Shown here in pieces: positions 5,637 through 55,096 of a stretch of 64,000 nt of DNA (its first letter is position 1; the number at the start of each line of letters is the position of its first letter). The translations under genes were made by a program, and so were the position numbers. The notes below the pieces were generated by a model. It had not been told where the DNA came from, did not search any database, and saw only the letters and a list, made by a program, of their open reading frames with translations. Source of the DNA: Gammaproteobacteria bacterium (GTDB lineage: Bacteria > Pseudomonadota > Gammaproteobacteria > UBA4575); assembly GCA_965242685.1 (NCBI GenBank), contig OZ251487.1:865199-929198 (forward strand), in the 5' to 3' direction.

Positions 5637-6179
5637 ATGTACAAGGAACCGATGACCGTTGCCGGAATGATGGCCGCAAGCTGGGGAATCATCGGATTTT
5701 CTCTGCTACTGGGTTTTTCTACGTGGCGACTCACTCTGAATTCAATTGAAGCGTTACAAATGCCGTTGAATCGGACACACTGGTTAGTATTCGCCATTTT
5801 TTTGGTCTTCATGGTTTACAGCGAAGGCTATAAAGGCTTCCAAAAAAGCTTCTCGCCACGATTTGCCGCGCGATTCAGACATCTCCTGTACAGTGCCACG
5901 CCTATTCAATCCCTGCTGGCACCCCTGTTCTGCATGAGTTATTTCCATGCCACTAAAAGGCGTATTATCGCCACATTTACATTGACTGCGGCGATCATCG
6001 CTTTTATTTTACTATTCAGACTCCTCCCACAGCCATGGCGAGGATTGCTGGATGCGGGCGTTGTGGCCGGATTGATCTGGGGAATGATCACCACCGCCTT
6101 ATTCTGTGTCAAAGTCTTTACTGACAGGACGTTTTGCTACGACGCTGAAATGCCGATAAACTCTAACGGCAACAAGTAG
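5637..6179 (+). CDS. hypothetical integral membrane protein (about 4-5 TM helices)
   Basis: Hydrophobic segments throughout. No recognisable motif. Its stop abuts the ABM monooxygenase ORF by 1 nt. Confidence 0.45.
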   Translation: MYKEPMTVAGMMAASWGIIGFSLLLGFSTWRLTLNSIEALQMPLNRTHWLVFAIFLVFMVYSEGYKGFQKSFSPRFAARFRHLLYSATPIQSLLAPLFCMSYFHATKRRIIATFTLTAAIIAFILLFRLLPQPWRGLLDAGVVAGLIWGMITTALFCVKVFTDRTFCYDAEMPINSNGNK

Positions 6180-8321: not shown

Positions 8322-10124
8322 CTATTTGTCTACACGTAAAATAGCCAGAAATGCTTCTTGTGGAATTCCCACTTTACCGATTTTTTTCATGCGTTTTTTA
8401 CCTGCCTTCTGCTTTTCCAGCAGTTTCTTTTTGCGCGTTACATCTCCGCCATAGCACTTTGCAGTAACGTTTTTCCGCAACGCCTTGGTTGTCGTCCTGG
8501 CAATGATTTTCGATCCGACTACAGCTTGAATGGCAACATCATACATCTGTCTGGGAATAATCTCCTTCATCTTAACGGCAAGCTCTCTACCGTAAGATTG
8601 TGCCCGATCTTTGTGTACAACGACCGACAGCGCATCTACTCTTTCGCCATTGATCAGTATGTCTAGTTTAACCAAGGGTACCGCCGAAAAATGTGAAAGA
8701 TGGTAATCAAATGAAGCGTAGCCGCGACTCAGCGATTTCAGTTTGTCAAAAAAGTCCAGGACGATCTCGCTCAAAGGCAACTGAAAGATGACCAATACTT
8801 GATTGCCGTAATAGTGCAAGTTTTTTTGTGTGCCGCGCTTTTCAATACACAAGGTTATCACGCTGCCTACGTATTTATGTGGAACTAGGATTGAGGCAGA
8901 GATAATCGGCTCTCGAATTTCCTTCACCTTGTTTGCCGCCGGCAAAGCGGACGGATTATGTATGTGTTGAATTTCGCCATCCGTAGTGTGTATTTCATAA
9001 ACTACCGTTGGCGCCGTGGTTATCAACGCCAGTGCATATTCACGCTCAAGACGTTCTTGAACGATCTCCATGTGCAACATACCAAGAAACCCGCATCGAA
9101 AACCAAACCCCAGCGCGTCGGACGTTTCAGGTTCATACGTAAACGCGGAGTCATTGAGCCGAAGCTTTTCCAGTGCACTTCGAAATGCCGCGTAATCGTC
9201 CGCGTTGACTGGGAATACGCCGGCAAAAACGTTGGGGCGAACTTCTTTGAAACCTTGCAACGGCCGTTTGGCAGGCGCAACAACCGACGTGAACGTGTCC
9301 CCCACTTTTGCTGCGGAAATATCTTTTATCCCGCAAATCACGTAACCGACCTGCCCCGACTTTAGGGTTTTGGACTCGGTACGCTTAGGTGTAAATATAC
9401 CTACCTTTTCAACCTGGTAGTCTCTCCCCGAAGACATCGCCACAACTTTTCCCCCACACTTGATTTCACCCTGCACCACGCGCACCAATGATATGACCCC
9501 GACGTAACTGTCAAACCACGAGTCAATGATAAGTGCCTTGAGAACGCCGCTTGCCGAACCTTTCCGCGAACTCACAGGGGCGGGAAGTCGTTTTACTATC
9601 GCCTCCAACACATCTTCCACACCTTGTCCAGTTTTGGCGCTCACCAACAAAGGTCGGGAGGCATCGATACCGATAACATCTTCGATCTCAGCTGCAACCT
9701 TTTCTGTATCGGCGGAAGGCAGGTCGATCTTATTTAATACCGGAACGATCTCCAGGCCGAGATCGAGCGCGGTGTAGCAATTTGCGACACTTTGCGCTTC
9801 TACACCTTGAGACGCATCAACGATAAGCAGTGCCCCTTCACAGGCCGCCAAAGAACGAGAAACTTCGTAAGAGAAATCAACGTGCCCGGGGGTATCGATG
9901 AAATTAAGTTGATAGATATACCCGTCGTTTGCCCGATAACGCAGTGACACACTTTGGGCTTTTATAGTGATACCACGCTCACGTTCCAGCTCCATGGAAT
10001 CCAGCACTTGTTCGCTCATCTCACGTTCGGACAAGCCACCGCAATGCTGAATAAAACGATCCGCTAAAGTGGTCTTGCCATGATCGATGTGTGCGATGAT
10101 GGAAAAGTTTCGGATACGCTCCAT
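8322..10124 (-). CDS. lepA: elongation factor 4 (translational GTPase LepA)
   Basis: [24 protein letters not shown]1 motif, [14 protein letters not shown], about 600 aa. Confidence 0.95.
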
Positions 10125-21168: not shown

Positions 21169-21726
21169 TTATTTTATATCCAGCTTACGACCATTGATTG
21201 ACGTAGAGCCTGCAACTTTTACATTCCTAGTCAACATATCCATTACCGGACATTGATTTTCGACGGCATCAACAAGCGCTTCTAATTTTTTCCTTGATGC
21301 CGAGCTTTTTATGTTGGTTTCATATTCAATTTCGGAAAAACCAGGATACGCCATACTATCACCTTCAATTCCCAACAAACCTCTGACGTCCAGATTTGCG
21401 GTCAGCTTTACGTCACATTCCTCCAAGGGTATGCCTCTGATTGATGCCAAGGCCGAGAACATAATTTGCTGACACGTTCCCAAGGCCACCAGCACCAACT
21501 CGACCGGGCTTGCCCCTAAATCCGTACCCCCAAATGCCGGAGGCTCATCAACTAACAGTTTGTGCCCTTCCTTACGAATTTGGGCCTTGCATAAAACACC
21601 ACCTTCCCAGTGCGAATGAACGCGGTATTTGAACTTTCCAAAGTCTGCATCTCCATTGGCTCTTTCGATAATATTGTTGATAGAGGCCCTTATATGCTCC
21701 AGGCTTTCGACATTTTCTTCACTCAT
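21169..21726 (-). CDS. OsmC/Ohr-family peroxiredoxin-like protein
   Basis: DEPPAFGGTDLGASPVELVLVALGTCQQI block characteristic of OsmC. Confidence 0.7.
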   Translation of the reverse strand: MSEENVESLEHIRASINNIIERANGDADFGKFKYRVHSHWEGGVLCKAQIRKEGHKLLVDEPPAFGGTDLGASPVELVLVALGTCQQIMFSALASIRGIPLEECDVKLTANLDVRGLLGIEGDSMAYPGFSEIEYETNIKSSASRKKLEALVDAVENQCPVMDMLTRNVKVAGSTSINGRKLDIK

Positions 21727-21976: not shown

Positions 21977-22285
21977 CTAATCGTCATAAAGATTGGTGTA
22001 AGTGTCCATACCGACTCCCCCGTGATACTTGGGAAATGCGGCCACATTATTAGTGATATGCTTTCTCGGCATGGTTTCCCAAAGCTTTTCTGCATCATCC
22101 ATTTCCAGAACTTCTATACTCTCGTTGTCGTCATCCTGAACAAAGTAATTTGAGTTCAATGCTCGAAACAGATACTTCTTGTTATCTTCGTCATACGCCA
22201 ATAACGTTGACGTATCTGTACGATACGTCTCTGTATCAACTACTATTTGTAGCGCCTTATACTTAGGAGTGCTTTCTTCCGTCAC
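21977..22285 (-). CDS. hypothetical acidic protein (102 aa), GTG start with a good SD (GGAGGTG)
   Basis: Intact ORF with SD. Highly acidic, no known motif. Confidence 0.4.
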   Translation of the reverse strand: MTEESTPKYKALQIVVDTETYRTDTSTLLAYDEDNKKYLFRALNSNYFVQDDDNESIEVLEMDDAEKLWETMPRKHITNNVAAFPKYHGGVGMDTYTNLYDD

Positions 22286-22342: not shown

Positions 22343-22939
22343 CTAGCTGTTCTTCTTCAGCGATTTGCGATAAATTGTAGGCCCCAGCGCACCGACTATA
22401 CTGAGCCTGTCCGCCGGAATTATCCTGGCAAAATTAACAATTGATTTGGCCAGTTGGTCCAACCGTTCAAGGACATCTTCATTTATCAGGTCATAGTTCG
22501 AGTAGTGCTCATTGTTGGCATAAACGCCACCCGGTAATACATGGGCAAGAAAAAATCCCATTATAGGCTTCAGTTCATGCTCTATGGCCAGGTAGTGATG
22601 ATCACTGCCACCCGTCGCAATCAAACCGACAGGCTTACCCAAAAGCGCATCATTTGGAATAAGATCAAACATGTTTTTCAGCAAACCAGTATAGGCCCCC
22701 CTGTACATGGGTGTGCCGATTAAAAGAGCATCCGCTTCTACTATCTTATCAATGACTACTTTTGAGTCCCCTTCATACTTTGCGGGGTCCCTACCATCAC
22801 AAAACTGCACATCATATTCACTGATATTAAGGGCCTCTACGTCAATGGTATCGTCATATCGTTTAGCAAACTCCAATGCCTTCTCAATCGCAATTAAAGT
22901 CTTACGGCTCAACCCTCCCGATAAACCAAGTAATTTCAT
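22343..22939 (-). CDS. NAD(P)H-dependent FMN reductase (SsuE/MsuE/SfnF family)
   Basis: MKLLGLSGGLSRKTL...ADALLIGTPMYRGAYTGLLKNMFDL...LIATGGSDHHYLAIEH follows the SsuE-type flavodoxin-like reductase pattern. Confidence 0.8.
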   Translation of the reverse strand: MKLLGLSGGLSRKTLIAIEKALEFAKRYDDTIDVEALNISEYDVQFCDGRDPAKYEGDSKVVIDKIVEADALLIGTPMYRGAYTGLLKNMFDLIPNDALLGKPVGLIATGGSDHHYLAIEHELKPIMGFFLAHVLPGGVYANNEHYSNYDLINEDVLERLDQLAKSIVNFARIIPADRLSIVGALGPTIYRKSLKKNS

Positions 22940-23043
22940 TTTCTACCTCCTTAAACGATTGTAATTGTTATGAGATAAATCAATGAAAAAAAGAGCTATG
23001 GTAATAAAGACAGCCCATAACGGTTATATATAGCTATACTACC

Positions 23044-23082
23044 AAAAAACGCGACTGTCACCAAACGAGACAATCGCGTTCC
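23044..23082 (-). terminator. rho-independent terminator downstream of the LLM monooxygenase gene
   Basis: Minus-strand RNA aacgcgauugucucguuuggugacagucgcguuuuuu: a 10-bp stem followed by a U6 tract. Confidence 0.55.
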
Positions 23083-23179: not shown

Positions 23180-24352
23180 TTACGCCGACTTCTTCTTACC
23201 GACTACTCGGCCCTTGCGAAGGTCTTCCTCCTTCTCGCGAACTAACGGAATGACCTTTTCACCAAACTGCTTAAGTTCCCAGTTATAGTGCAGGTATCCA
23301 GTCAGAACAACCTTTATGCCGAGTTGCTTAAGCTCAATGATACGATCGGCGACAGACTCTGGCGTCCCGATAAGACCCGTTTTGAACCCATCGTTATATT
23401 GTACCAAATCCTCAAACGATGAATTCGCCCACATGCCTTCACCTTCTTTCGATGAACGACCGGCTTGTTTGACTGCTTCACCAAAGCCTTTTACGGCTTC
23501 AACGTCCGCATTCACGATAATATCTCGCAAAGTTTCCGTCGCTTCTTCCATCGTATCACGAACGATACAAAAGCCATTACAACCGAACTGAAGCTCGCCG
23601 GGGTCTCGTCCAGACTCTACGGCCGCTGCCCTGGAGTCGTCCATAATTTCCTTGAAACCTTTGTTGGTATTGCCGTTCATGAACAGTACGTCGGTAACAC
23701 GCCCGGCCATTCTCCTTGCATCTTTGGAATTTCCGCCTTGGAACACCACGATTCTATGCAGAGGCTTCGGCAGCATTGGCGCCCCGTCAATCTGGTAGAA
23801 ATCGCCATAGAACGTGAACTCATCTTCTGTCCACATACCTTTCATGATACGGATAAATTCCTCAGACCTGCGGTAGCGCTCCGTATGCTCAAGCCAAGGT
23901 AGCCCATAGCCCGTGTATTCGCCCTTGAACCAGCCACTTACAATATTGATGGAAGTTCGGCCCTGCGTGCAGCAGTCAAGAGAAGCCTGCATCTTCGCAA
24001 CGATTGCGGGATGCCACAAACCTGGATGGCACGCCGTAATGACTTCAATCTTCTTAGTGTGCTGGAGAATTACATTCGCAATCGTAAATGCCTCATGCTG
24101 ATGGTCTGCACCATAGCTGGCAAACCAACGGGTTTGAGCCAGTGCGGTTGCAAATCCGGAATCTTCGGCATCCTGTGCATATTTGATATTTGCCTCTGGC
24201 GTCCAATCAGTATCCATAGGCAAGGTCGTAATGACCAAGCCACCAGAGATATTGGGCACCCAATATGCAAATTCTATTTGATCTGAGTCTACCCAAGCCG
24301 ACGGCTTTAACGAGTTCTCAGAGTTTGGTAATAATCTTGGATATTTTGCCAT
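23180..24352 (-). CDS. LLM-class FMNH2-dependent monooxygenase, SfnG (dimethylsulfone monooxygenase)-like
   Basis: Luciferase-like TIM-barrel blocks (FAYWVPNISGGLV, SGWFKGEYTGYGLPWLEHTERYRRSEEFIR, FEDLVQYNDGFKTGLIGTP) resemble the remembered SfnG/SsuD subgroup. Adjacent SsuE-like reductase. Confidence 0.75.
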   Translation of the reverse strand: MAKYPRLLPNSENSLKPSAWVDSDQIEFAYWVPNISGGLVITTLPMDTDWTPEANIKYAQDAEDSGFATALAQTRWFASYGADHQHEAFTIANVILQHTKKIEVITACHPGLWHPAIVAKMQASLDCCTQGRTSINIVSGWFKGEYTGYGLPWLEHTERYRRSEEFIRIMKGMWTEDEFTFYGDFYQIDGAPMLPKPLHRIVVFQGGNSKDARRMAGRVTDVLFMNGNTNKGFKEIMDDSRAAAVESGRDPGELQFGCNGFCIVRDTMEEATETLRDIIVNADVEAVKGFGEAVKQAGRSSKEGEGMWANSSFEDLVQYNDGFKTGLIGTPESVADRIIELKQLGIKVVLTGYLHYNWELKQFGEKVIPLVREKEEDLRKGRVVGKKKSA

Positions 24353-24403: not shown

Positions 24404-24592
24404 TTATACCCATACCTTCTTTGGAGTCCCTATCCCTTTTTCCTGCAAAATCTCAATTGCCTTGTCAGTATCTCCATGGGCTTCAATAAGAGCGTCTCGG
24501 CAATCAATGGTGCCCGCGCGCGTCGCATTTCTAACCGTTTTGATCATTTGTGCCGTTACGTCCTTAAGCCCAAACTCATTATCTGTGCTCAT
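24404..24592 (-). CDS. 62-aa protein with an EF-Ts N-terminal-like (UBA-like) domain
   Basis: ITAQMIKTVRNATRAGTIDCRDALIEAHGDTDKAIEILQEKG resembles the EF-Ts N-terminal segment ([42 protein letters not shown]). Strong SD AAGGAGGAG 8 nt upstream of the ATG. Confidence 0.5.
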   Translation of the reverse strand: MSTDNEFGLKDVTAQMIKTVRNATRAGTIDCRDALIEAHGDTDKAIEILQEKGIGTPKKVWV

Positions 24593-24710: not shown

Positions 24711-25949
24711 TCATTGCTTTTTAATCGGTATCACGTGACCCATCTTTTCCGCCTTCGTATGAAGATATCTTTGACGAAATTCATGGCCATGATCATGGCT
24801 CCCCGACGTCAACATAGGTATCCGCTTGACCAGCTTGATGCCGTAATTTTCCAACCAATTACACTTATTCGGATTATTGGTCATAAGCTGGACACGCTCA
24901 ATGTTGAGTGCATGCACAATATGTGCGGCAATGGCATAATCCCTATGATCGGCATCAAAACCTAATGCCCTGTTTGCCTGCACGGTATCAAACCCAGATT
25001 CCTGTAGGGAATATGCCTTGAGTTTACCGGATAAACCGATACCTCTACCTTCCTCTCTCATGTAAAGCACGACTCCCGTACCATGTTGCTCAATCATTTG
25101 CATTGCCACGTGTATCTGATCACCGCAATCACACCGTAGCGAGCCAAATACATCACCGGTAAGGCACTCAGAGTGAATCCTGAGTAGTACGTTGTCGGTT
25201 TGGCTCCATGAGCCTTTCACCAAGGCCAAGTGTTCTTCTTCAGTAAAGGTATCCCGAAATGCAATCAATTCAAACTCTCCCCAGTGAGTGGGTAGCTGGA
25301 CGGTTACAATGCGCTCCACCCTGGATTCATAACGAAGTTTATATTTGATCAAGTCTTGGATAGATATTATTTTCAGTAAAAACCGTTTCGACAGCTTGAA
25401 TAAGTCCGGGACCCTAGCCATAGAGCCGTCCAGCTTCATAATTTCGCACAAAACGCCTGCTTTTCGTAAACCTGCCAAGTCCATCAAGTCAACGGCTGCT
25501 TCGGTATGCCCATTTCTCTTAAAAATGCCGCCATCTGATGCCTTGAGAGGGAAAATATGACCGGGACGTGAAAAGTTACTTGCATCCACTTTTGAATCTG
25601 CCAATGCCTTTACCGTTTTGGCTCGGTCGGCGGCAGAAATGCCCGTTGTCGTCCCATGCTTGAAGTCTACCGAAACAGTAAAGGGGGTCGCATGCAAGGC
25701 ATTATTTTCATCTGGTGGCACCATCGGCTTCAAACCCAATTCATCCGCCCGTTGCTGATCAATTGCCGTACAAATCAAACCACGGCCATGCGTAGCCATA
25801 AAATTGATCATCTCAGGCGTACATTTATCCGCCGAACCGACGAAGTCACCCTCATTTTCACGGCTTTCGTCATCGACAACAATTACCAGCTTGCCCCGCC
25901 GTATATCTACCAAGGCCTCTGGAATTGAATTAAAGCGAGCCGTTTTCAT
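24711..25949 (-). CDS. ribBA: bifunctional 3,4-dihydroxy-2-butanone-4-phosphate synthase / GTP cyclohydrolase II
   Basis: N-terminal DHBP synthase blocks (VVVDDESRENEGDFVGSADKCTPEMINFMA). C-terminal GCH-II zinc site (CDCGDQ) and RALGFDADHRDY. Confidence 0.9.
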   Translation of the reverse strand: MKTARFNSIPEALVDIRRGKLVIVVDDESRENEGDFVGSADKCTPEMINFMATHGRGLICTAIDQQRADELGLKPMVPPDENNALHATPFTVSVDFKHGTTTGISAADRAKTVKALADSKVDASNFSRPGHIFPLKASDGGIFKRNGHTEAAVDLMDLAGLRKAGVLCEIMKLDGSMARVPDLFKLSKRFLLKIISIQDLIKYKLRYESRVERIVTVQLPTHWGEFELIAFRDTFTEEEHLALVKGSWSQTDNVLLRIHSECLTGDVFGSLRCDCGDQIHVAMQMIEQHGTGVVLYMREEGRGIGLSGKLKAYSLQESGFDTVQANRALGFDADHRDYAIAAHIVHALNIERVQLMTNNPNKCNWLENYGIKLVKRIPMLTSGSHDHGHEFRQRYLHTKAEKMGHVIPIKKQ

Positions 25950-25987
25950 AAACTACATGACATCAAATACTTTTATATAACAGTTAT

Positions 25988-26075
25988 AGCATTTTTTGTG
26001 CCAAGTTACAGAATACCCTATATCTTATTTTTCGAAAGACTCTGCTAAAGTTAAAGTTACTTTCAGCATAAAAGC
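25988..26075 (-). promoter_or_regulatory. sigma-54 (-24/-12) promoter module, copy 1, driving ribBA (minus strand)
   Basis: Minus strand reads TTGGCACAAAAAATGCT (GG-N10-GC with the correct -24/-12 spacing) about 40 bp upstream of the ribBA ATG. The ~88 bp block is ~85% identical to copy 2. Confidence 0.5.
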
Positions 26076-26119
26076 TGTTTCTAATCGAAACAAATATCCT
26101 TTCAGTGTAATAAAATTGT

Positions 26120-26181
26120 GAATCGTAAAAAGTAAGGCAGAAACAAAATAGCCAGACTCACTTCCCTGCTTATCTGGCTAC
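26120..26181 (-). terminator. putative intrinsic terminator downstream of the binding-protein gene
   Basis: Minus-strand hairpin agccagauaagcagggaagugagucuggcu (7-bp stem) followed by the U-rich auuuuguuucugccuuacuuuuu. Confidence 0.4.
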
Positions 26182-26251
26182 ATAATATCCTCTATTTATT
26201 TAGAGGAGCACATTCTTCGACTGAAACTTCAGTCATCTAATTTTCCTACGG

Positions 26252-27694
26252 TTACATCATCTCCCATGTACTTACGCCCTCGGGAACCGGCGGCTGATCG
26301 CCCATAAGCGTCCAATTATCGCGGTCATTCGGGTCGTTACAATCACGCTTTTCGATCTTGTTTTCTGTACGATAGATCTCAGCAAGGCTATACAACATCT
26401 CTGGAAGTGCCTGACTTCTGATCCAAGGCGTCACGATTTCCCATTGTCTCTTCTCAACGTCATACTTTTGAAACTTCGAGTTGTGACCACCAACGTGATC
26501 TTTACAAGTCACTTTCATGGGTGCAAGCAAGCCCGTAGCACCCAACTCTGCAATGCGTTCTTCATCAAAGTAGATATTTTCGAAGCCCCATCGCACCTGT
26601 TTGGCATTCAAAACCTTATTGCCCCAGCGCTTCTGTGCATTGATGATCGCTTCTACATGCATGATACCTGCCGTAATGCCTAAATTATGGTAGACGCTAC
26701 CCAGGCGACTTTTATCCTGCAAGTCCCCTTCACCTGCACCATAAACGACTTCAATGATTTCATTCTGAACATCCGTAAAAATTCCGGCCGGGTGAGTTGT
26801 AATGGCCTGATATCCATGCGCAGCCTTGCCGGCCGGCCTTACATCCTCATCCGAATTGCTCCAGATATTTCCAATCAGATGGTTAACCGGAAAACCGATG
26901 CGTGCCGCATTCTGAATCGCCACTGGATTCATCACGCCCCAACCTCGTAGAAACACGAAGTCCGGCTTGATCTTACGAATGTTAATCCACTGCGACCCTT
27001 GCTCGTTTCCTGGGTGGGGAATTTCAATCTTGTGGTGTTCAAAACCATATTCTCCCCCCATCGCATCCATGTACTCCAGTGCATTTCTCCCATACGGCGA
27101 GCCATGAAACAAAGTCACGACTTTTTTGCCAGACATTGCCTTTGCCAAGTCTTCATTACTCATGTTTGGATCTTCTCCCGTCACCAAATGAGCCATGAAC
27201 CTTACCGTTGCATTGTACTCGTCAGGCACTCCCATCCCTAGAGGAAACACGTATGGAAACACTTCGCCATCTATGGTTTCACTCTTTCCATGGTTGACTG
27301 TAATCATGGGGATTTTATCTATGCGCACCACTTCATTTAGTGCTTCGGCAATCCCCACACTCAAGGGGTCAAAGAAAAGTGCGCCGCCTTCCCTGTCCTT
27401 CATGCGCTTATAACACTCTACGCCTCTCTCAACCGCGTATTCTGTTTCGCATTCAGACCAGATCAGCTTTACACCGCCTACTCCGCCATCGCGCATATTC
27501 TTCAGCTTATAATAGTCTAGAATTCCGCCATAGTAGCCCGTACCACCAGCGGCATATGGGCCGACGCGATAACTAGGGATGGGAATGTACATTTCCCCCT
27601 CAGCGGAAAAACCGGGCAATGAGGTAAGCAGCAACGCAGCGGATGAAACCACCAGCACTACCGCCTTTTTCAGGTTGTTAAATTTAAGTTCCAT
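26252..27694 (-). CDS. periplasmic substrate-binding protein, type I PBP fold (LivK/amide-urea binding family), orphan
   Basis: Signal peptide. 480-aa protein with Leu/Ile/Val-binding-protein-like architecture. No permease or ATPase genes adjacent. Confidence 0.7.
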   Translation of the reverse strand: MELKFNNLKKAVVLVVSSAALLLTSLPGFSAEGEMYIPIPSYRVGPYAAGGTGYYGGILDYYKLKNMRDGGVGGVKLIWSECETEYAVERGVECYKRMKDREGGALFFDPLSVGIAEALNEVVRIDKIPMITVNHGKSETIDGEVFPYVFPLGMGVPDEYNATVRFMAHLVTGEDPNMSNEDLAKAMSGKKVVTLFHGSPYGRNALEYMDAMGGEYGFEHHKIEIPHPGNEQGSQWINIRKIKPDFVFLRGWGVMNPVAIQNAARIGFPVNHLIGNIWSNSDEDVRPAGKAAHGYQAITTHPAGIFTDVQNEIIEVVYGAGEGDLQDKSRLGSVYHNLGITAGIMHVEAIINAQKRWGNKVLNAKQVRWGFENIYFDEERIAELGATGLLAPMKVTCKDHVGGHNSKFQKYDVEKRQWEIVTPWIRSQALPEMLYSLAEIYRTENKIEKRDCNDPNDRDNWTLMGDQPPVPEGVSTWEMM

Positions 27695-27848
27695 TATCTA
27701 TCGCCTCCTCGAAAATTATTTTTATAAAGCTACTTCAGATAAACCACACATGCATATTTTCGTTTTAATAATGAAAGAAATGCAGACCGAACAAAATAAA
27801 GCACTCCATTCGGTTTCGCAACTATACACCATGTACAAATCCAAGGTA

Positions 27849-27933
27849 AGCATTTTTTGTGCCAAGTTACAGAATGCACAATATCTTGTTTTTCGGAAGA
27901 TTCTGCTAAAGTAAAGTTGCTTTGTAAAAACTG
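27849..27933 (-). promoter_or_regulatory. sigma-54 (-24/-12) promoter module, copy 2, driving the binding-protein gene
   Basis: Same TTGGCACAAAAAATGCT element and conserved upstream block as copy 1. About 155-nt leader to the binding-protein ATG. Confidence 0.5.
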
Positions 27934-28145
27934 AAGATATCCAGCATGATTCGTTTCAGCCGTTACAAATTGGCGAAGTAATCAAGCAAGTACCTTGATA
28001 AATGTAATGATGTTATGTTTCCAATTGATACACCGCATGCCCTGTTTAGAAACACCCTAACTAGGGCGGCGTTGGCTTTATCACTTTAAGCATAGTCCCT
28101 TTGCCGCAGCAACAACCTCGAAGCACGGTACTCAAACGGCTTTCT

Positions 28146-29546
28146 TTACCGACTCTCCATATGATGCCTGCCACGATGCAGCCCCCAGCGATTACGGCGC
28201 ATCCATAGTGTTTTTCTTCCTATTCCAAGTATTTTGGCAAGCTCGGTTTCACTGTACTGGTCCTGATATTGTTGAATCGTGCTTTTTGTATACTCATCAA
28301 TTGACATCGGCCGCTCATCCCCATGTCTGCCGTTATCATTTCTCAAGAGACTGTTGACATCATTGTTTTTTATATGCTTAAAGTCCTCAGTTTTCAGTTC
28401 ATCTCCCTTCGCCAATATGATTGCCCGCTCCACCGAATTTTTCAGTTCTCGAACGTTTCCGGGCCAGTCGTGTTCATTCAAAAAAGCAAGTAGTTCATCA
28501 TTGACTGGTTTAACCTTTCGCCCTAAATTGAGGTTATAGTGCTGTATAAAATAGTTTACAAGCAGTTCAATGTCACGGCTCCGTTGGCGTAAGGGGGGTA
28601 CTGAAATCTGAATGACATTCAGCCGATAAAACAGATCTTCCCGCATCCGACCAGCCGCCACTTCTTTATGCAAATCCCTGTTACAGGCAGCAACGATACG
28701 AACGTCTACCTCATAGGATTGCACGTCGCCGATTGGACGGACATGCCGGTCTTGAATAAATCTGAGCAACTTTACCTGCAACATCGGGGCCAGCTCGGAA
28801 ATTTCGTCGAGAAACAGCGTCCCGCCACTCGCCTCACGAATCAAGCCCTCTTTCCCCGCAACGGCACCGGTATATGCACCCCGGACGTGACCAAAGAACT
28901 CGGATTCTATCAGTTCCGCCGGAATCGCCCCGCAGTTGACCGGCACAAACGGCCCTCTACTCCGCGCACTCATTTTATGAATCTCAAGTGCCACCAATTC
29001 TTTACCTGTTCCGCTTTCCCCCTGAATCAACACCGTTGCATCACTCGGCCCTACTCTATGGAGAAGATTTTTCAATTCTTTTACGGAGTGGCTCTCACCA
29101 ATAATTTCCTGTTTCCGTTTGTTGTTAAGTGCGCTACGCAAATTACGCTTCAACAAGCGATTTTCCTTTTGAATACTCCTTTCATTAATTGCCCGCGTGA
29201 CGGCGTGGACAAGATATTTATCGGAAAAAGGCTTGAGTATGTAATCGGCGGCACCCAAACGTAATGCCTGCACCGCACATTTTATTGACGTATAGTGCGT
29301 CATGATGATGCGCGGACATCCCAATCCCTCCATTCTTATTTTTCTGAGAAGATCAAGCCCGGTAGACCCCCGTAGCTTAAGATCGCTAAGCACCAGATCA
29401 AAATGCTCGGACAACAGTTTCGGCATGGCTTCGGATACCCTGCGCACGTGGGTTACACTCATCCCTTCATGCTCAAGGAGCCGTCTGACCGATTCGCCAA
29501 ACTCAACGTCGTGCTCTACGACCAAAACTCTATGCGTACCTTGCAT
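28146..29546 (-). CDS. sigma-54-dependent NtrC-family response regulator (receiver + AAA+ + HTH), no cognate kinase adjacent
   Basis: Receiver domain with a DLVLSDLKL phospho-acceptor context. AAA+ sigma-54 interaction domain (GESGTGKE, GAFTGA-like GAYTGA). C-terminal Fis-type HTH. Confidence 0.85.
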   Translation of the reverse strand: MQGTHRVLVVEHDVEFGESVRRLLEHEGMSVTHVRRVSEAMPKLLSEHFDLVLSDLKLRGSTGLDLLRKIRMEGLGCPRIIMTHYTSIKCAVQALRLGAADYILKPFSDKYLVHAVTRAINERSIQKENRLLKRNLRSALNNKRKQEIIGESHSVKELKNLLHRVGPSDATVLIQGESGTGKELVALEIHKMSARSRGPFVPVNCGAIPAELIESEFFGHVRGAYTGAVAGKEGLIREASGGTLFLDEISELAPMLQVKLLRFIQDRHVRPIGDVQSYEVDVRIVAACNRDLHKEVAAGRMREDLFYRLNVIQISVPPLRQRSRDIELLVNYFIQHYNLNLGRKVKPVNDELLAFLNEHDWPGNVRELKNSVERAIILAKGDELKTEDFKHIKNNDVNSLLRNDNGRHGDERPMSIDEYTKSTIQQYQDQYSETELAKILGIGRKTLWMRRNRWGLHRGRHHMESR

Positions 29547-29767
29547 TCTGTCCCCCGCAAACCTGTCAGTAGTTCCAGTGTTTGATGATATCCGATAGGT
29601 ATCGTGACCAAAAGTAAGTATAATAGAGAATGATATAATAGCTTACTTGTATCAAATTGACCAGAGTGTTTTATTCTTATTGTATCCAAATGAAACGTAT
29701 AGTAAATTATTTGGACAAGGTAGCTGTAAAACATAAAAGAACAACAAACAAGTAAAGGGCATAACCG

Positions 29768-30247
29768 ATGAATTCCAATCAAATAAGCAATGATGAATTC
29801 AAACGCGCCATGGGCTGTTTCCCTAGTGGCGTCACAATTGTGACAACGATCGGCAAAGACAATCAGAAGTACGGATTTACGGCCTCTGCATTTTCATCCC
29901 TTTCTCTCTCGCCTCCCTTGGTACTGGTTTGCTTGGCGAATAATGCCGAATGCTTTGAGTCTTTCAACCGCGGCAAGCAATTTGCCGTCAATATTATCGG
30001 TTCAAAGCATGAAGAACTGGCCTTCAAGTTTGCCACCAAAGGCTGCGATAAGTTTGGGGGGGATGAGTTCGTAGCCGGTGAAAATGGCCTGCCAGTGCTT
30101 GAGGATGCCCCGGTATCCATGGAGTGTGCAACCCGATACACTTACCCTGGCGGCGACCACGTTATCCTCGTGGGCGAAGTCAAGTGCATAAAAGTCAACG
30201 ATACCCTCCCAACCATTTGGCATCAGGGAAAATTCCACCACCTTTAG
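29768..30247 (+). CDS. flavin reductase-domain protein (HpaC/NADH:FMN oxidoreductase family)
   Basis: FKRAMGCFPSGVTIVTT...GFTASAFSSLSLSPPLVLVCL is the flavin-reductase-like FMN-binding split-barrel signature. Confidence 0.8.
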   Translation: MNSNQISNDEFKRAMGCFPSGVTIVTTIGKDNQKYGFTASAFSSLSLSPPLVLVCLANNAECFESFNRGKQFAVNIIGSKHEELAFKFATKGCDKFGGDEFVAGENGLPVLEDAPVSMECATRYTYPGGDHVILVGEVKCIKVNDTLPTIWHQGKFHHL

Positions 30248-38950: not shown

Positions 38951-39787
38951 TCAGACAAAGCAGGGACGGCGGCGATGATAGTATTTGACGCCATTAAATG
39001 AGATGTCTTTGTCCGATGTGCCGCCTAAATACATCTCGGCCACCAAGTCGGTGGACTCCAGCAGTTCTTTCGCCGACCCTTTTTTCACTACGCGCCCATT
39101 TTCAATGACGTAGCCAACCGTGGCGTAGCGTAGTGCAATCCTGGCATTTTGCTCCGAAACCAGAAAGCTTACCCCTTCCTCTTCATTGAGTTGTTTGACA
39201 ATCTCGAATATTTGTTCGACAAATTGCGGGGCAAGTCCCATTGACGGCTCGTCAAGCAAAATCAGACTGGGTTTCGACATCAGCGCCCGGCCGACGGCAA
39301 TCATCTGCTGCTCACCCCCCGAACACAGCCCGCCGGGGTTCTTGCGGCGGTCCGCTATGCGAGGAAACAGCCCATAAACATGATCCAGATTTCTTCGCTG
39401 TTCCGCCTTGTTCATATTCTGAATAAAAGAGCCGGTCAGCAGGTTCTCTTCAACGCTCAAGTGGGCAAATATATGACGCCCTTCCAGCACTTGTACCACA
39501 CCTTTTTTCACCATGTCATAAGCGGAATAGGAGGCGATGTCATGGCCGCTCAACTCTATGGCACCTTTTGTTACTTCACCGCGTTCCGCCTCTAGCAAAC
39601 GTGAACACGCCTTCAGCGTGGTCGTTTTCCCTGCGCCATTGGCGCCGAGTAAGGAGACGACTTCGCCTTGATTGATGGCCAGAGAAACCCCGCGCAACGC
39701 GAGAATGACGCCGCCGTAAACGGCTTCAATGTTATTGATCGCCAACAATGGGTCATCGTTGCTCATAGTTTTACTCCCGTCCGTCAT
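38951..39787 (-). CDS. branched-chain-amino-acid-type ABC transporter ATP-binding protein (LivF-like)
   Basis: Walker A GANGAGKTT, signature LSGGEQQ, Walker B LILLDEP. The true start may be the internal MSNDD Met (39766). Confidence 0.85.
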   Translation of the reverse strand: MTDGSKTMSNDDPLLAINNIEAVYGGVILALRGVSLAINQGEVVSLLGANGAGKTTTLKACSRLLEAERGEVTKGAIELSGHDIASYSAYDMVKKGVVQVLEGRHIFAHLSVEENLLTGSFIQNMNKAEQRRNLDHVYGLFPRIADRRKNPGGLCSGGEQQMIAVGRALMSKPSLILLDEPSMGLAPQFVEQIFEIVKQLNEEEGVSFLVSEQNARIALRYATVGYVIENGRVVKKGSAKELLESTDLVAEMYLGGTSDKDISFNGVKYYHRRRPCFV

Positions 39788-39848
39788 ACCGTTCTTATGC
39801 CCGCTATTTATTTGCCTACACCCGCCGGATGGTCAAACAGAAATGACC

Positions 39849-40985
39849 TTACGTAGTGGAAAACGGCCAGATGCGCAACCGATGTTTAGTGGCGTCCCAC
39901 AACCCCGCAAAGCCGTTCGGATGATAGATCAACAGCAAGATAATGATGGTGCCGACCACGATCTTTGAGTTATTTTCCACAAACGCGGTATCTAACGTGC
40001 CGCCACCAAATACCGCATCACCGAACCGCGTGATCAGTATCGGCCAACCATAGACAAAAATGGCGCCCAAGAAGGAACCTAAAATCGATCCCAACCCTCC
40101 CAAGATAATCATGAACATAACCAGAAACGACCTTCGCAGGTCATAGATCATGAAGTCGAGATTGCCGATGTAGCAGTATGAGTACATGGCGCCCGCAACC
40201 CCACAGTAAAAACAGCTCACAAAAAACGCATTCAATTTGGTCTTGCCCACGGGAATACCGATAACGCTCGCCGCAATGTCCATATCCCGTACCGCCATCC
40301 AGTTCCTTCCGGTTGAGCTACGCACCATGTTTTTGGCCGCAAGCGCCAACACCACCGTTACAACCAAGGCGATCAAATACCGCCAAACATAGGCATTGGC
40401 GTAGGCATAGGAAGGACGATCTTCGCGGTTGGCCCCTAAAAGATTAAAAATTTGCTCTTGAAAAGGCAGGAAGCGGTAGTGGAATTCCGGCAAGTGCACA
40501 ACCCCCGAACTCGCATAGTTCAAAAACCATGGGTAGGCATTGAACAGCCATTCATGGAAAAATTGCGCGCACAACGTCGATACAAGAAGATAAAACCCCT
40601 TAATGCGCAAACTGGGAAGGCCGAATACAATCCCCACCAAGCCCGCCACAATACCGGCACACAAAAAAGCCAACCAGACGTTCATCCATTCCACGCGAAA
40701 CAGCAGGTTAAACGCCGTAAACGCACCAAAGGACATGAACCCCGCCGTGCCCAAAGAAAGTTGTCCGGTATACCCCGAGGCGATATTCAACCCCAAACTG
40801 GCAACGCTCAATACCATTATCGGAATCAGAATGGCACTGAACCAGTAGTCATTACCTATAAATGGAACGACCAAAAACATAAACGCCAGAAACATCCACA
40901 TGATCCAGCGGTCTTCGCGTATCGGCACCATGCGCCGATCTTCGGCGTAACTTTCAACAATCTGACCTGTTTCACGGTAAAACAT
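39849..40985 (-). CDS. ABC transporter permease (LivM-like)
   Basis: Multi-TM, 378 aa, adjacent to LivH/LivG/LivF-like genes. Confidence 0.8.
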   Translation of the reverse strand: MFYRETGQIVESYAEDRRMVPIREDRWIMWMFLAFMFLVVPFIGNDYWFSAILIPIMVLSVASLGLNIASGYTGQLSLGTAGFMSFGAFTAFNLLFRVEWMNVWLAFLCAGIVAGLVGIVFGLPSLRIKGFYLLVSTLCAQFFHEWLFNAYPWFLNYASSGVVHLPEFHYRFLPFQEQIFNLLGANREDRPSYAYANAYVWRYLIALVVTVVLALAAKNMVRSSTGRNWMAVRDMDIAASVIGIPVGKTKLNAFFVSCFYCGVAGAMYSYCYIGNLDFMIYDLRRSFLVMFMIILGGLGSILGSFLGAIFVYGWPILITRFGDAVFGGGTLDTAFVENNSKIVVGTIIILLLIYHPNGFAGLWDATKHRLRIWPFSTT

Positions 40986-40987
40986 GT

Positions 40988-41935
40988 TTATATTCTCTCA
41001 ATGTCACGTTCACCAAAGATCCCCGTTGGGCGTATCAGTATGAATACCAGAGCGGTCAAATATGCCCACCAGTGCTCAATACCCTGCCCTCCGAAGGCAT
41101 CCGCAAAGAAGATCTCACCAAGTTTTTCACTCGAACCGATGATCAACCCACCTACGATACAACCGGGGATAGATGTCAGTCCACCGATGAGGATTACCGG
41201 CAAGCCTTTCAGTACCGCCCAGGTCAGTGTAAAAGACACACTCAAGCGGTCTGCCCAAGCCATGCCCGCCACGAACACAATTACACCGGTCACCGCCCAT
41301 ACGATTGCCCAAATCCTTGCCAACGGAATACCTACCGCCTGCGCGGCCATGTGGTCATCGGATACCGCACGCAACGACAAGCCGGTACGGGTGTACTGGA
41401 AAAAGAGATAGAGTGCCACCACCAACAGGATGGCGACCCCGGCAACAAAGCCGTCAAATTGGCTTACGATTATATCGAGCCACGGGATGTAGTCGGCGAC
41501 CATAAGAGGCTCGGTTGGAATACCCAGTTCAAGGCCATGCACCGCAGAGTCCCAAGTGCCCTGAGCCAGGCCCTCCAGAAAGTAGTTCAGCCCGACAGTG
41601 GCCATAAACAAAGACAGCAATGACTGGTTTGCAAGGGGGCGCATCATCACGCGTTCTATGACGACACCCATAATGACCATGACAAACGTAGTGATGGTGA
41701 ACGCCACCCAAAAATTCACTTGTCTTTCCAACAGACTCACAAACGTCAGGGCCGCAAACAGTAGCATTGTCCCCTGTGCAAAATTGAACACGCCGGAAGA
41801 TTTATAGACAAGAACGAATCCAATGGCTACCAACGTATACATGATCCCCGACAGCATGCCTCCGATGAGCACCTCCAGCCCAAACAAGGTGAACATCTCA
41901 ACAAACGCATTACCGAACCCCGCTAGAATTTCCAC
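40988..41935 (-). CDS. ABC transporter permease (LivH-like)
   Basis: Multi-TM, 315 aa. 3-bp spacing to the LivM-like gene. Confidence 0.8.
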   Translation of the reverse strand: MEILAGFGNAFVEMFTLFGLEVLIGGMLSGIMYTLVAIGFVLVYKSSGVFNFAQGTMLLFAALTFVSLLERQVNFWVAFTITTFVMVIMGVVIERVMMRPLANQSLLSLFMATVGLNYFLEGLAQGTWDSAVHGLELGIPTEPLMVADYIPWLDIIVSQFDGFVAGVAILLVVALYLFFQYTRTGLSLRAVSDDHMAAQAVGIPLARIWAIVWAVTGVIVFVAGMAWADRLSVSFTLTWAVLKGLPVILIGGLTSIPGCIVGGLIIGSSEKLGEIFFADAFGGQGIEHWWAYLTALVFILIRPTGIFGERDIERI

Positions 41936-41976
41936 TTGTCTGCTCTCCTCTTCACGCTTTGTCCGAGTTGCATGGC

Positions 41977-42765
41977 TTAATGGCTGACGCCCAGATAGGC
42001 GTCAATGACGGCCTGGTTGTTTTTGACCTCTTCGGGAGTACCGTCGCCGATCTTGGCACCGTAGTCCATCACCACTACGTGGTTGGAAATATCCATTACC
42101 ACGCTCATATCATGCTCGATCAAGACTATCGTCGTGCCGCGGTTGTAATTAATCTCTTGTATGAAACAGGCCATATCCAATTTTTCATCCAGATTCATGC
42201 CCGTCATCGGCTCATCAAGCAACAGTATCTTAGGCTCCGCCGCCAGCGCACGCCCAAGCTCAACCCGCTTTTGCAGTCCATACGACAAGGCCGAAACCTG
42301 CGTTTTGCGTATGGATTGCAACCCCAAAAATTCAATAATGTTCTCCACCTCTTCACGATGCTCAAGCTCTTCTCTTTTACTCCGCCCAATTCCCAGGGCA
42401 TGTTCTATAAACGTAGCCTTCATCATCAAATTGCGACCGGTCATAATGTTTTCGACCGCAGTCATCCCCGAAAACAGGGCGATGTTCTGGAAGGTGCGAC
42501 CGATACCCATTACCGCCGCAGAATGGGGCTTCATCCTGGAGAATTTTTTCCCTTCAAAGGTAATGGCCCCTTTTTGTGGTGTATATACGCCATTGATCAC
42601 GTTCAACATGGAGCTTTTGCCGGCACCATTGGGGCCGATTACGGCACAAATCTCACCCTTATACACCGTAAAGCTGATGTTCGTTATCGCGTTGGTGCCC
42701 CCAAACGCCAAGTCAATATTCTCAACTGTTAAGTGTGGCTCTTTTTTATTTTCTCCGCTATCCAT
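41977..42765 (-). CDS. ABC transporter ATP-binding protein (LivG-like)
   Basis: GPNGAGKSS Walker A, LSYGLQKRVELGRAL signature, LLLDEP. Confidence 0.85.
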   Translation of the reverse strand: MDSGENKKEPHLTVENIDLAFGGTNAITNISFTVYKGEICAVIGPNGAGKSSMLNVINGVYTPQKGAITFEGKKFSRMKPHSAAVMGIGRTFQNIALFSGMTAVENIMTGRNLMMKATFIEHALGIGRSKREELEHREEVENIIEFLGLQSIRKTQVSALSYGLQKRVELGRALAAEPKILLLDEPMTGMNLDEKLDMACFIQEINYNRGTTIVLIEHDMSVVMDISNHVVVMDYGAKIGDGTPEEVKNNQAVIDAYLGVSH

Positions 42766-42779
42766 CCGGTTTCGTCAAC

Positions 42780-44666
42780 TTATATAGATTGTAGTTTCAG
42801 TTCCGCCAACGTCTCGTCATTGGCGGCATCTTTTACTTCGTAGGTCTGTTTTGATGAGTACAAGGCATCCACCAGCGCCTTGTGTTTGTCCATGATCACA
42901 TCGCGCTTGATCTTACGCGACCTGGTCACCTCTCCCAAGTCAATATTGAACTCGCGATGCATGATCAGAAATCGTTTGATCGGCGGTGAGCCTTTGCCTT
43001 CAATCTTTTCTATATCGGCATTTACGGCGTCTACCGTCTTCTTTACCAGTTCGTACACTTCATCCTTAGTCGCCAAATCCCGATAGCCGGTAAAACGAAT
43101 TCTATTCGCTTCCGCCCAACTTCCCACCGTGTCGCTGTCCACCACAATCAGTGCGGCAATCGCTTCCTTGTTATCACCCACGGCGACGGCTTCTTTTATA
43201 TAGGGCGAAGATTTTAGTGCATTCTCCACCAGAAGCGGGGCAAACACGTCACCATTGCTGAACTTGCCCATAGAATCAACACGTTCGGTAATTCTCAGCG
43301 CACCCCGATCATCAATTTCACCCATGTCTCCGGTTCTGACCCAGTTGTCCGAGTCGCTTGTTTCGGCCGTGGCATCGGGGTTTCGATAATACTCTTTAAA
43401 GGCATTGATTCCTCTGAATGCAATTTCACCATTATCGAGCTTTTTAAGCTCCACACCCGGCAGCGGTACGCCCATACTGTATTCACCGGCCAGGCTGTCA
43501 ACCTGTTCATCGCCCTGTACGCAAACAAGGCCGCCAGACTCGGTAGTTCCATAGGATTTTCTGAGGTCAACGCCAATGCTGCGGAAAAAATCAAACACTT
43601 CGCTGCTCATAATATCACCACCGGTAAAGGCCCTGCGCAACCTCGTCAATCCATATACGTTTTTCAGGGGCGCATACACAAGCAAGCTGCCGAGTTTGCG
43701 TTTCAAACCGCCACCGTCGGCGGCGGCATTGCCGTTCACAACCCTGTTTCGGTGACGTTTGGCAACGTTCAGCCATTTATAGAACGTCTTGGATTTCGAA
43801 CGCTGCGCACGCGCAATAATATCGGAATACAGCTGCTTATAGAAATGAGGCGGCGCATAAAGGACGGTGGGGCCGATCTCCCGCAAATTGGCCATGACGG
43901 TCTCATTGTTCTCGGGGCAATTAACGGTAAACCCTCTAAGCAACCAAAGCGTGTAGGTGAATAATATGTTCGCCACGTAGGAGAGCGGTAAAAATGCAAG
44001 TAATTGCTCGTCCCGGGTTATTTTTTCCTGAGCGGCCAATGCGGTGCCGGTGTCGATAAAGCCGCCATGCGTGTGAACGACCCCGCGCGGTTCACCGGAA
44101 GTGCCCGAGGTATAGAGGATGAAGGCATCGGTATCTTTGGTGACTTTTTGAACGGACTCCGCAAAAAAATCGGGGTGATCCGCAATAAATTTTCTTCCCG
44201 CTTCCCGTAGCTGTAAAAAACTGTGCAAGCGAGAAGAGGTATATTCCTGCATCCCGCGACTGTCGCTATAGGCCATCTCCTCAAAATTCGGACACTGTGG
44301 CTTTACGGCATACATGCCGTCAACCTGTTGCTGGTCCTGCACCACGACAAACCTGGCTTCGCAGTTATTCAAAGCCAAAACCAACTCTTCGGAATTTGAA
44401 TCGGGATGGAGAGGAACGGCAACCGCCCCCAAGCTCTGTGTGGCGATCATCGCAAAGTAAAGCTCGGGGATATTGCTGCCCATGATGGCAATTTTATCGC
44501 CCGGCTTGACCCCTCTATGCGCCAGTCCACCGGCAAATTCACGCACGAATGAATCCGCGTCTCCCCACGTCCAAGTCTTCCACAACCCGTAGCGTTTGTA
44601 ACGGATTGCCGGTGCCAATTTGTGCGTTTTTACCTGTTCTAAAAAAAGACCGGGAAAAGTTTCCAT
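42780..44666 (-). CDS. AMP-dependent acyl-CoA synthetase/ligase (long-chain-fatty-acid--CoA ligase-like), ABC-transporter-associated type
   Basis: AMP-binding motif ILYTSGTSGEPRGV. 628 aa. Immediately upstream of the liv-type ABC genes on the same strand. Confidence 0.8.
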   Translation of the reverse strand: METFPGLFLEQVKTHKLAPAIRYKRYGLWKTWTWGDADSFVREFAGGLAHRGVKPGDKIAIMGSNIPELYFAMIATQSLGAVAVPLHPDSNSEELVLALNNCEARFVVVQDQQQVDGMYAVKPQCPNFEEMAYSDSRGMQEYTSSRLHSFLQLREAGRKFIADHPDFFAESVQKVTKDTDAFILYTSGTSGEPRGVVHTHGGFIDTGTALAAQEKITRDEQLLAFLPLSYVANILFTYTLWLLRGFTVNCPENNETVMANLREIGPTVLYAPPHFYKQLYSDIIARAQRSKSKTFYKWLNVAKRHRNRVVNGNAAADGGGLKRKLGSLLVYAPLKNVYGLTRLRRAFTGGDIMSSEVFDFFRSIGVDLRKSYGTTESGGLVCVQGDEQVDSLAGEYSMGVPLPGVELKKLDNGEIAFRGINAFKEYYRNPDATAETSDSDNWVRTGDMGEIDDRGALRITERVDSMGKFSNGDVFAPLLVENALKSSPYIKEAVAVGDNKEAIAALIVVDSDTVGSWAEANRIRFTGYRDLATKDEVYELVKKTVDAVNADIEKIEGKGSPPIKRFLIMHREFNIDLGEVTRSRKIKRDVIMDKHKALVDALYSSKQTYEVKDAANDETLAELKLQSI

Positions 44667-54999: not shown

Positions 55000-55096
55000 C
55001 CCTTTACTATAAAGTTTTTTCATATATTTAGTATTGCTTGCCAGACAAATAATTATTTGGTATCAAAACGGGCATTTTTAAGAGAAGCTTCATTAC

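Follow-up and report, generated by a model that had tools for sequence, protein, structure and literature searches.

Why should a gene of riboflavin biosynthesis and a gene for a periplasmic solute-binding protein carry nearly the same upstream sequence, and which part of it would a regulator recognise? This question is raised by a 64,000-nucleotide stretch of DNA from a Gammaproteobacteria bacterium (assembly GCA_965242685.1, contig OZ251487.1, positions 865,199 to 929,198; hereafter the window, whose own numbering is used throughout), in which two near-identical stretches of about 88 bp precede ribBA and the binding-protein gene, next to the gene of an NtrC-family sigma-54 activator. The initial annotation read them as one module holding a sigma-54 promoter together with its enhancer. 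Comparison with related loci leads to a different picture: both stretches are likely core sigma-54 promoters with sites for integration host factor (IHF) in the small regulon of the neighbouring activator, the copy before the binding-protein gene having been transplanted from ribBA, and the palindrome to which the activator would bind lies outside them.

The two copies and their core promoters

The duplication announced by the initial annotation is real, since a repeat finder aligns 67 nt without gaps at 90% identity (25988-26054 versus 27849-27915). When one 1-nt gap is allowed, copies A and B match over about 77-85 nt at about 88-90%. Read on the minus strand, both terminate exactly in the same -24/-12 element.
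25988..26075, minus: module copy A, bounded as in the initial annotation, with core promoter, IHF position and AT-rich spacer in their ancestral context
27849..27933, minus: module copy B, putative derived copy of a ribBA-type cassette, which strain L090 also carries and no other lineage has
25988..26003, minus: -24/-12 element TGGCACAAAAAATGCT before ribBA, predicted start near 25977, ATG at 25949
27849..27864, minus: -24/-12 element TGGCACAAAAAATGCT before the binding-protein gene, predicted start near 27838, ATG at 27694

Both elements have the GG-N10-GC spacing and agree with TGGCAC-N5-TTGCW at 10 of 11 specified positions, and an NtrC-type activator gene adjoins them, so their description as canonical sigma-54 promoters stands. 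The one at 27849..27864 is, moreover, the sole GG-N10-GC within the 451-nt intergenic region before the binding-protein gene. A scan for further copies had been proposed as a way to define a regulon; with zero mismatches, TGGCAC-N6-TGCT occurs at two sites in the whole window, which are the two module copies, and a 24-nt piece of core and spacer is present in exactly two places, where shuffles give an expectation of 0.00. Comparison with relatives shows the repeat to be peculiar to this species rather than a module shared across the regulon.

The similarity breaks off with the final base of the -12 element, at its 3' end, and the leaders downstream are no more alike than shuffled controls (249 of 500 shuffles equalled the observed score). 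In the other direction, a weaker colinear stretch of doubtful significance continues to about 150 nt, at 74% overall, the extension beyond about 85 nt being ambiguous (9 of 500 shuffles equalled its score). Inside the module, a 27-nt block is identical between the copies, and the remainder differs by about 13%. The L-numbers used here are labels of the related loci and lineages compared with the window. In L090, a second strain of this species from an independent assembly (run SRR17504027), the binding-protein copy is found with 1 substitution, the activator protein is 100% identical to that of the window and the intergenic region is about 4% different; the copy is thus no assembly artefact.

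The genes downstream of the two promoters form two transcription units, as delimited by two intrinsic terminators, and are listed here with the activator gene.
28146..29546, minus: NtrC-family sigma-54 activator with receiver, AAA+ and helix-turn-helix domains (domain matches)
26252..27694, minus: periplasmic solute-binding protein of the Peripla_BP_6 (LIV) type, closest solved structure 4ru0
26141..26177, minus: intrinsic terminator after the binding-protein gene (fold, hairpin plus T-run)
24711..25949, minus: bifunctional RibBA, dihydroxybutanone phosphate (DHBP) synthase plus GTP cyclohydrolase II, lead gene of its operon (family matches)
24404..24592, minus: p62, 62 aa, resembling the EF-Ts N-terminal domain and conserved beside sfnG
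23180..24352, minus: SfnG, dimethylsulfone monooxygenase dependent on reduced flavin mononucleotide (FMNH2) (TIGR04021, 555 bits against a cut-off of 383)
23042..23078, minus: intrinsic terminator closing the ribBA-p62-sfnG unit (fold, hairpin plus T-run)

The binding-protein gene would accordingly be transcribed alone, and ribBA, p62 and sfnG together. The terminator at 26141..26177 is kept in relatives, where the stem sequences change and the pairing is preserved. Control of the window ribBA by a flavin mononucleotide (FMN) riboswitch was ruled out because its predicted leader, only about 28 nt long, holds no RFN element; a scan of the whole window at Rfam gathering thresholds gave just tRNA and signal recognition particle RNA. 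The comment that an enhancer-dependent promoter on ribBA is unusual needs this context, as ribBA here leads an operon with sfnG, and sigma-54 control of sfn genes is known. No further sigma-54 elements or palindromes were found in the window before msuE, p62, sfnG, the OsmC-like gene or a LIV-type ATP-binding cassette (ABC) operon.

An upstream palindrome and an IHF-type site

Related loci were collected by protein searches, contig look-ups and an SfnG scan of one genome per species. About 20 lineages have the same gene order, mostly genomes of 1.7-2.8 Mb labelled as Gammaproteobacteria or as metagenome-assembled genomes of Thiotrichales. The syntenic cluster FlR/EBP/SBP/RibBA/p62/SfnG/MsuE/p102/OsmC, in which the first three stand for the flavin reductase, the activator and the binding protein, is present in about 17 species-level genomes and in metagenome contigs. 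The sigma-54 activator gene always adjoins, and sigma-54-type elements lie before the binding-protein gene, ribBA and usually also the flavin reductase gene; the ribBA-type element TGGCA[CT]AAA....TGC is found in 13 relatives. In these lineages, each sigma-54 element is preceded by the palindrome GTTTC-N5-GAAAC, which also occurs upstream of both window promoters.
26077..26091, no strand: perfect palindrome GTTTCGATTAGAAAC, inferred upstream activator sequence (UAS) of the ribBA operon, centred 82 nt upstream of GG
28017..28031, no strand: palindrome GTATCAATTGGAAAC with 1 mismatch, putative ancestral UAS of the binding-protein gene, centred 161 nt upstream of GG

The first of these lies one base beyond copy A as bounded above. 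The second has an upstream partner, GTTTCTAAAC, at 28044-28053, which is common to the window and its relatives. Among the relatives, 13 of 14 ribBA promoters have a perfect palindrome whose centre precedes GG by 81-85 nt, often with a second site 17 nt further upstream. At the binding-protein promoters, 15 of 19 lineages show one with no more than 2 mismatches, and its centre is 59-63 nt before GG. The co-occurrence of GTTTC-N5-GAAAC with the promoters and with the activator gene suggests that it is the binding site of the activator. Because about 20 related lineages have sigma-54 elements and the palindrome upstream of these same genes, the proposal that one activator co-controls both genes is well founded. 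In strain L090, a 14-nt tandem duplication (GGGTGTTTATAGCC beside GGGTGTTTCTAAAC) is located at 5640-5670, where the enhancer of the binding-protein gene has its upstream partial palindrome.

The enhancer had been sought inside the module, in TTTCGAAA and in the tandem element AAAGTTAAAGTTA. However, alignments of the ribBA upstream regions show both to be conserved in no relative, and the palindrome that is conserved sits outside the module. Between palindrome and promoter the spacer is otherwise unconserved in these alignments, with the sole exception of an IHF-type site: in 11 of the 14 ribBA promoters from related lineages, a sequence that departs from the consensus used, WATCAANNNNTTR, by no more than 1 mismatch begins 28-29 nt before TGG. 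Both window copies have a counterpart.
26018..26030, minus: IHF-type position of the ribBA copy, AAATAAGATATAG, at -27, degenerate, with 3 mismatches to WATCAANNNNTTR
27879..27891, minus: IHF-type site of the binding-protein copy, AAACAAGATATTG, a consensus match with 1 mismatch

Since conservation within the module is limited to the IHF site and the palindrome lies outside, the module reads as a cassette of IHF site plus core promoter, not as an enhancer. Hence, of the enhancer or IHF region that the initial annotation placed there, an IHF-type site at a fixed offset is retained, and the enhancer is not.

In the mechanism that we propose, the activator encoded at 28146-29546 would bind the palindrome at 26077-26091 for the ribBA-p62-sfnG operon, and for the solute-binding protein gene the one at 28017-28031 together with its partner at 28044-28053. 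Looping of the DNA, aided by the IHF-type site in the module, would then carry it to the sigma-54 polymerase at TGGCAC-N6-TGC, with transcription starting near 25977 and 27838. The regulon would serve the scavenging of dimethylsulfone and related organosulfur compounds. Also, the extra RibBA encoded at the head of the operon would be co-induced and raise the flavin supply for SfnG, which makes sense because SfnG needs FMNH2.

Origin of the binding-protein copy

The two promoters of the window are more alike than those of any relative compared. A local alignment of the upstream regions of the binding-protein gene and ribBA scores 63.5 in the window and 8-25 in 17 relatives. The relatives' ribBA promoters, of the TGGCA[CT]AAA....TGC type, resemble both window copies, whereas their binding-protein promoters, such as TGGTACGAGTATTGCA or AGGCATGACTATTGCA, belong to another type that lacks an IHF site. 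In the closest other species, L091, whose activator is 83% identical, such an ancestral-type promoter, TTGGCACGAGTATTGCT, is placed 52 nt after the binding-protein palindrome. At the equivalent position of the window there is a sequence with only part of these features.
27943..27962, minus: CGGCTGAAACGAATCATGCT, probable remnant of the ancestral promoter of the binding-protein gene; its GG and GC are spaced by 14 where the canonical spacing is 10, and it follows the palindrome by about 52 nt

This sequence is probably dead as a promoter. The ribBA copy, on the other hand, keeps the ancestral arrangement, with the palindrome at 82 nt and the IHF position at -27. Because of this, and because the relatives' binding-protein promoters differ, we infer that a ribBA-type cassette of about 85 nt, comprising core and IHF site, was copied in this species from ribBA into the leader of the binding-protein gene. 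Its purpose would be the replacement of a decayed ancestral promoter, downstream of an ancestral enhancer that the recipient had kept.

Several observations weigh against this overall interpretation. The enhancer distance of 161 nt at the binding-protein gene matches no relative and differs in phase from the ribBA spacing by roughly half a turn of the helix, the resemblance of CGGCTGAAACGAATCATGCT to a promoter is weak, and the IHF position of the ribBA copy is poor, with its 3 mismatches. Regarding the activator, its binding to the palindrome is argued from co-occurrence, its loop reads GAYTGA where GAFTGA is canonical, no histidine kinase gene adjoins or lies near its gene, and rpoN is outside the window, where an RpoN-box was looked for and none was found. 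Moreover, the abrupt end of the repeat on its 3' side and the invariant 27-nt block could reflect a wider selection on the module, and may mark either selection or a recombination junction within the promoter.

These last features are what would be expected if the whole 88-bp module were the shared unit, with TTTCGAAA and AAAGTTA-AAGTTA as the activator-bound enhancer and the similarity held by selection: the likeness ends precisely at the -12 element, the differences avoid the 27-nt block, and AAAGTAACTTT is a small palindrome in itself. Nonetheless, these motifs are unconserved in the roughly 17 related lineages that retain the promoters, the palindrome that is conserved there falls outside the module, and the relatives' two upstream regions are unrelated to each other, which makes this explanation improbable. 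We also consider it quite unlikely that the binding-protein copy is either a small mobile repeat or a duplicate that is neutral and without function, the gene using another promoter. Its atypical enhancer distance (161 nt against about 60 nt in relatives) would fit, and the region duplicates elsewhere too, as in the 343-nt tandem duplication of L001. However, the copy provides the only GG-N10-GC of the intergenic region, the position of the ancestral promoter has no valid spacing now, the copy has accumulated a single substitution in the second strain against about 4% over the intergenic region, and it has the better IHF site of the two. A test for repeats of the repetitive extragenic palindromic (REP) or miniature inverted-repeat transposable element (MITE) type failed as well, with 2 copies in 64 kb, the module in no relative and 0 hits of an exact 23-mer of its core against metagenome contigs.

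That the GG/GC match is a coincidence, both genes having sigma-70 promoters and the repeat serving another regulator, for example of the CysB type, appears very improbable. The region is indeed AT-rich, with sigma-70-like hexamers, for example at 27928-27900, and the titles of cited works place CysB upstream of SfnR in Pseudomonas. Nevertheless, 16 sigma-70-like hexamer pairs were found against 16.7 expected, so that sigma-70 promoters were dropped as a reading of either leader; this chance level also argues against another promoter for the binding-protein gene. In addition, different lineages keep the -24/-12 elements at both genes while the flanks vary, and a sigma-54 activator gene invariably adjoins. 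The reading of the two stretches as core promoters of one regulon, the second transplanted from ribBA, is considerably more likely than any of these.

Known systems, related loci and neighbouring genes

Sigma-54-dependent control of sfnFG and sfnA by SfnR and SfnR2 in P. putida and P. aeruginosa comes from earlier work (Endoh 2003, 2005; Habe 2007; Lundgren 2019) to which PMC8234197 and PMC13352529 refer. SfnG and its relatives use FMNH2 from FMN reductases, and the P. putida sfn locus also holds ABC-transporter genes (PMC8234197). The window resembles this system in having a sigma-54 activator directed at an operon with the FMNH2-dependent SfnG, and in the nearby genes for FMN reductases, of which the locus has two, placed in adjacent transcription units. 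It differs in that its operon is led by ribBA and the 62-aa protein, and in that the LIV-type binding protein would be a separate member of the regulon. Also, the window activator carries a receiver domain, whereas the Pseudomonas SfnR proteins are shorter and are not known to carry one.

In the classical sigma-54 architecture of nifH, Pu and glnHp2, a palindromic UAS and a GG-N10-GC core are separated by an IHF site. The window follows this type, with its upstream palindrome, intervening IHF site and GG-N10-GC core, but here the distance between enhancer and GG is short: it measures 82 nt at ribBA and about 60 nt in the ancestral type of binding-protein promoter, where an IHF site is lacking. 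To our knowledge, GTTTC-N5-GAAAC matches none of the known activator sites.

A link between riboflavin synthesis and sulfur scavenging exists in B. subtilis through RibR of a sulfur-regulated ytmI-type operon (Pedrolli 2015, as outlined in PMC7693651). Flavin supply is raised there, as it would be here, together with organosulfur assimilation by FMNH2-dependent monooxygenases. However, RibR is described in it as a flavokinase and RNA-binding protein that overcomes FMN-riboswitch control of the main rib operon, whereas the window puts a second, riboswitch-free biosynthetic gene, ribBA, inside the induced operon. FMN-riboswitch control itself (Rfam RF00050) shares with the window the regulation of genes of the ribB/ribBA type, but the window has no such riboswitch. 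A literature search combining ribBA with RpoN and sulfonate terms returned nothing relevant.

Sigma-54 control of sfn genes by SfnR is already known in Pseudomonas. What this locus would add is, with a chance that we place slightly short of even, ribBA or ribA as a conserved and integral part of a p62-sfnG-msuE-p102 subfamily, a receiver-domain activator with an undescribed GTTTC-N5-GAAAC operator, and the transplanting of an IHF-plus-core cassette between genes. If so, flavin supply would limit organosulfur scavenging and would be hard-wired into its regulon. The locus presents a second route, besides that of B. subtilis RibR, by which flavin synthesis would be coupled to a flavin-hungry sulfur metabolism. 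It also offers a concrete and testable dimethylsulfone regulon (operator, IHF site and core promoters) for an uncultured clade of small-genome Gammaproteobacteria, and a probable case of promoter replacement within a regulon in which a core cassette is copied between member genes and the enhancer of the recipient is retained. For the annotation of such regions, conservation between repeats of one genome indicated the wrong enhancer and comparison across species the right one.

Regarding the wider occurrence of the system, in the cultured betaproteobacterium Glaciimonas immobilis (L025), two palindromes, a sigma-54 element and an activator of 50% identity flank sfnG. Linkage of rib genes to this sfnG subfamily is also seen in Glaciimonas (ribA) and, among Actinomycetota, in Solirubrobacteraceae and Pseudonocardia. 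The ribBA of the operon is dispensable, having decayed in two lineages: a frameshift interrupts it in L017, and a remnant of 41 aa is left in L034; the latter retains the promoter and palindromes before p62-sfnG despite the loss. In L012, L013, L014, L033 and L091, a sigma-54 element or palindrome before ribBA is absent, and the short intergenic region between the binding-protein gene and ribBA has a terminator. In these lineages ribBA-sfnG must be expressed otherwise, by read-through or from an unrecognised promoter. In L001, a tandem duplication of about 343 nt at 9380-9804 comprises the binding-protein palindrome and sigma-54 promoter (9380/9447 and 9723/9789).

As to the proteins, the activator is defined by matches to Sigma54_activat (2e-66), AAA_lid_14 and Response_reg. 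Its best NCBIfam matches are generic (AtoC, NtrC) and under their cut-offs, and its homologues are named in the sources merely as NtrC-family regulators. The RibBA translation, read directly, retains the motifs of DHBP synthase and, in the GTP cyclohydrolase II part, all three cysteines that bind zinc. No permease genes adjoin the binding-protein gene, and an exact-protein look-up with its product gave no match. Homologues of 59-60% identity (L007-L009) were left out of the comparison as orphans in an unrelated context. A LIV-type ABC transporter (2 ATPases and 2 permeases) is encoded with an AMP-binding ligase at 38951-44666 on the minus strand; since its operon has no binding-protein gene and the orphan binding protein is encoded 11 kb away, the two may be partners.

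The remaining features of the locus flank these genes.
29768..30247, plus: flavin reductase of the Flavin_Reduct family (family match)
29649..29696, no strand: palindrome-type sites TGTATCAAATTGAC and GTATCCAAATGAAAC (29649-29662 and 29682-29696), between the activator and flavin reductase genes
22343..22939, minus: MsuE-like NAD(P)H:FMN reductase (family match)
21977..22285, minus: p102, 102 aa, no family match
21169..21726, minus: OsmC-like protein (family match)

Before the flavin reductase gene (region 29547-29767), only the non-canonical TGGACAAGGTAGC, with GG-N8-GC, is left. The gene is a regulon member in relatives, and by comparison with them about 60-70 nt that would hold its sigma-54 promoter appear to have been deleted here. 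Sigma-70-like hexamers for the divergent activator gene, at 29706-29679 and 29663-29635, overlap the palindromes, which would fit autoregulation.

The small proteins p62 and p102 accompany this sfnG subfamily in Gammaproteobacteria, Betaproteobacteria and Actinomycetota. Between p102 and the OsmC-like gene, relatives have a NUDIX gene that the window does not have there. Upstream of the OsmC-like gene, sigma-54-like elements of the form TGGC[CT]T....TTGCA occur in L001 (17043), L004 (16247), L010 (6642), L021 and L023; they usually come without a palindrome and are not present in the window. Finally, elsewhere in the window, type I restriction-modification genes for an R and an S subunit are located at 45511-49004, and an array of about 28 or more copies with an 18-nt period and 60-83% identity, presumably a repetitive coding region, extends over 55033-55800.

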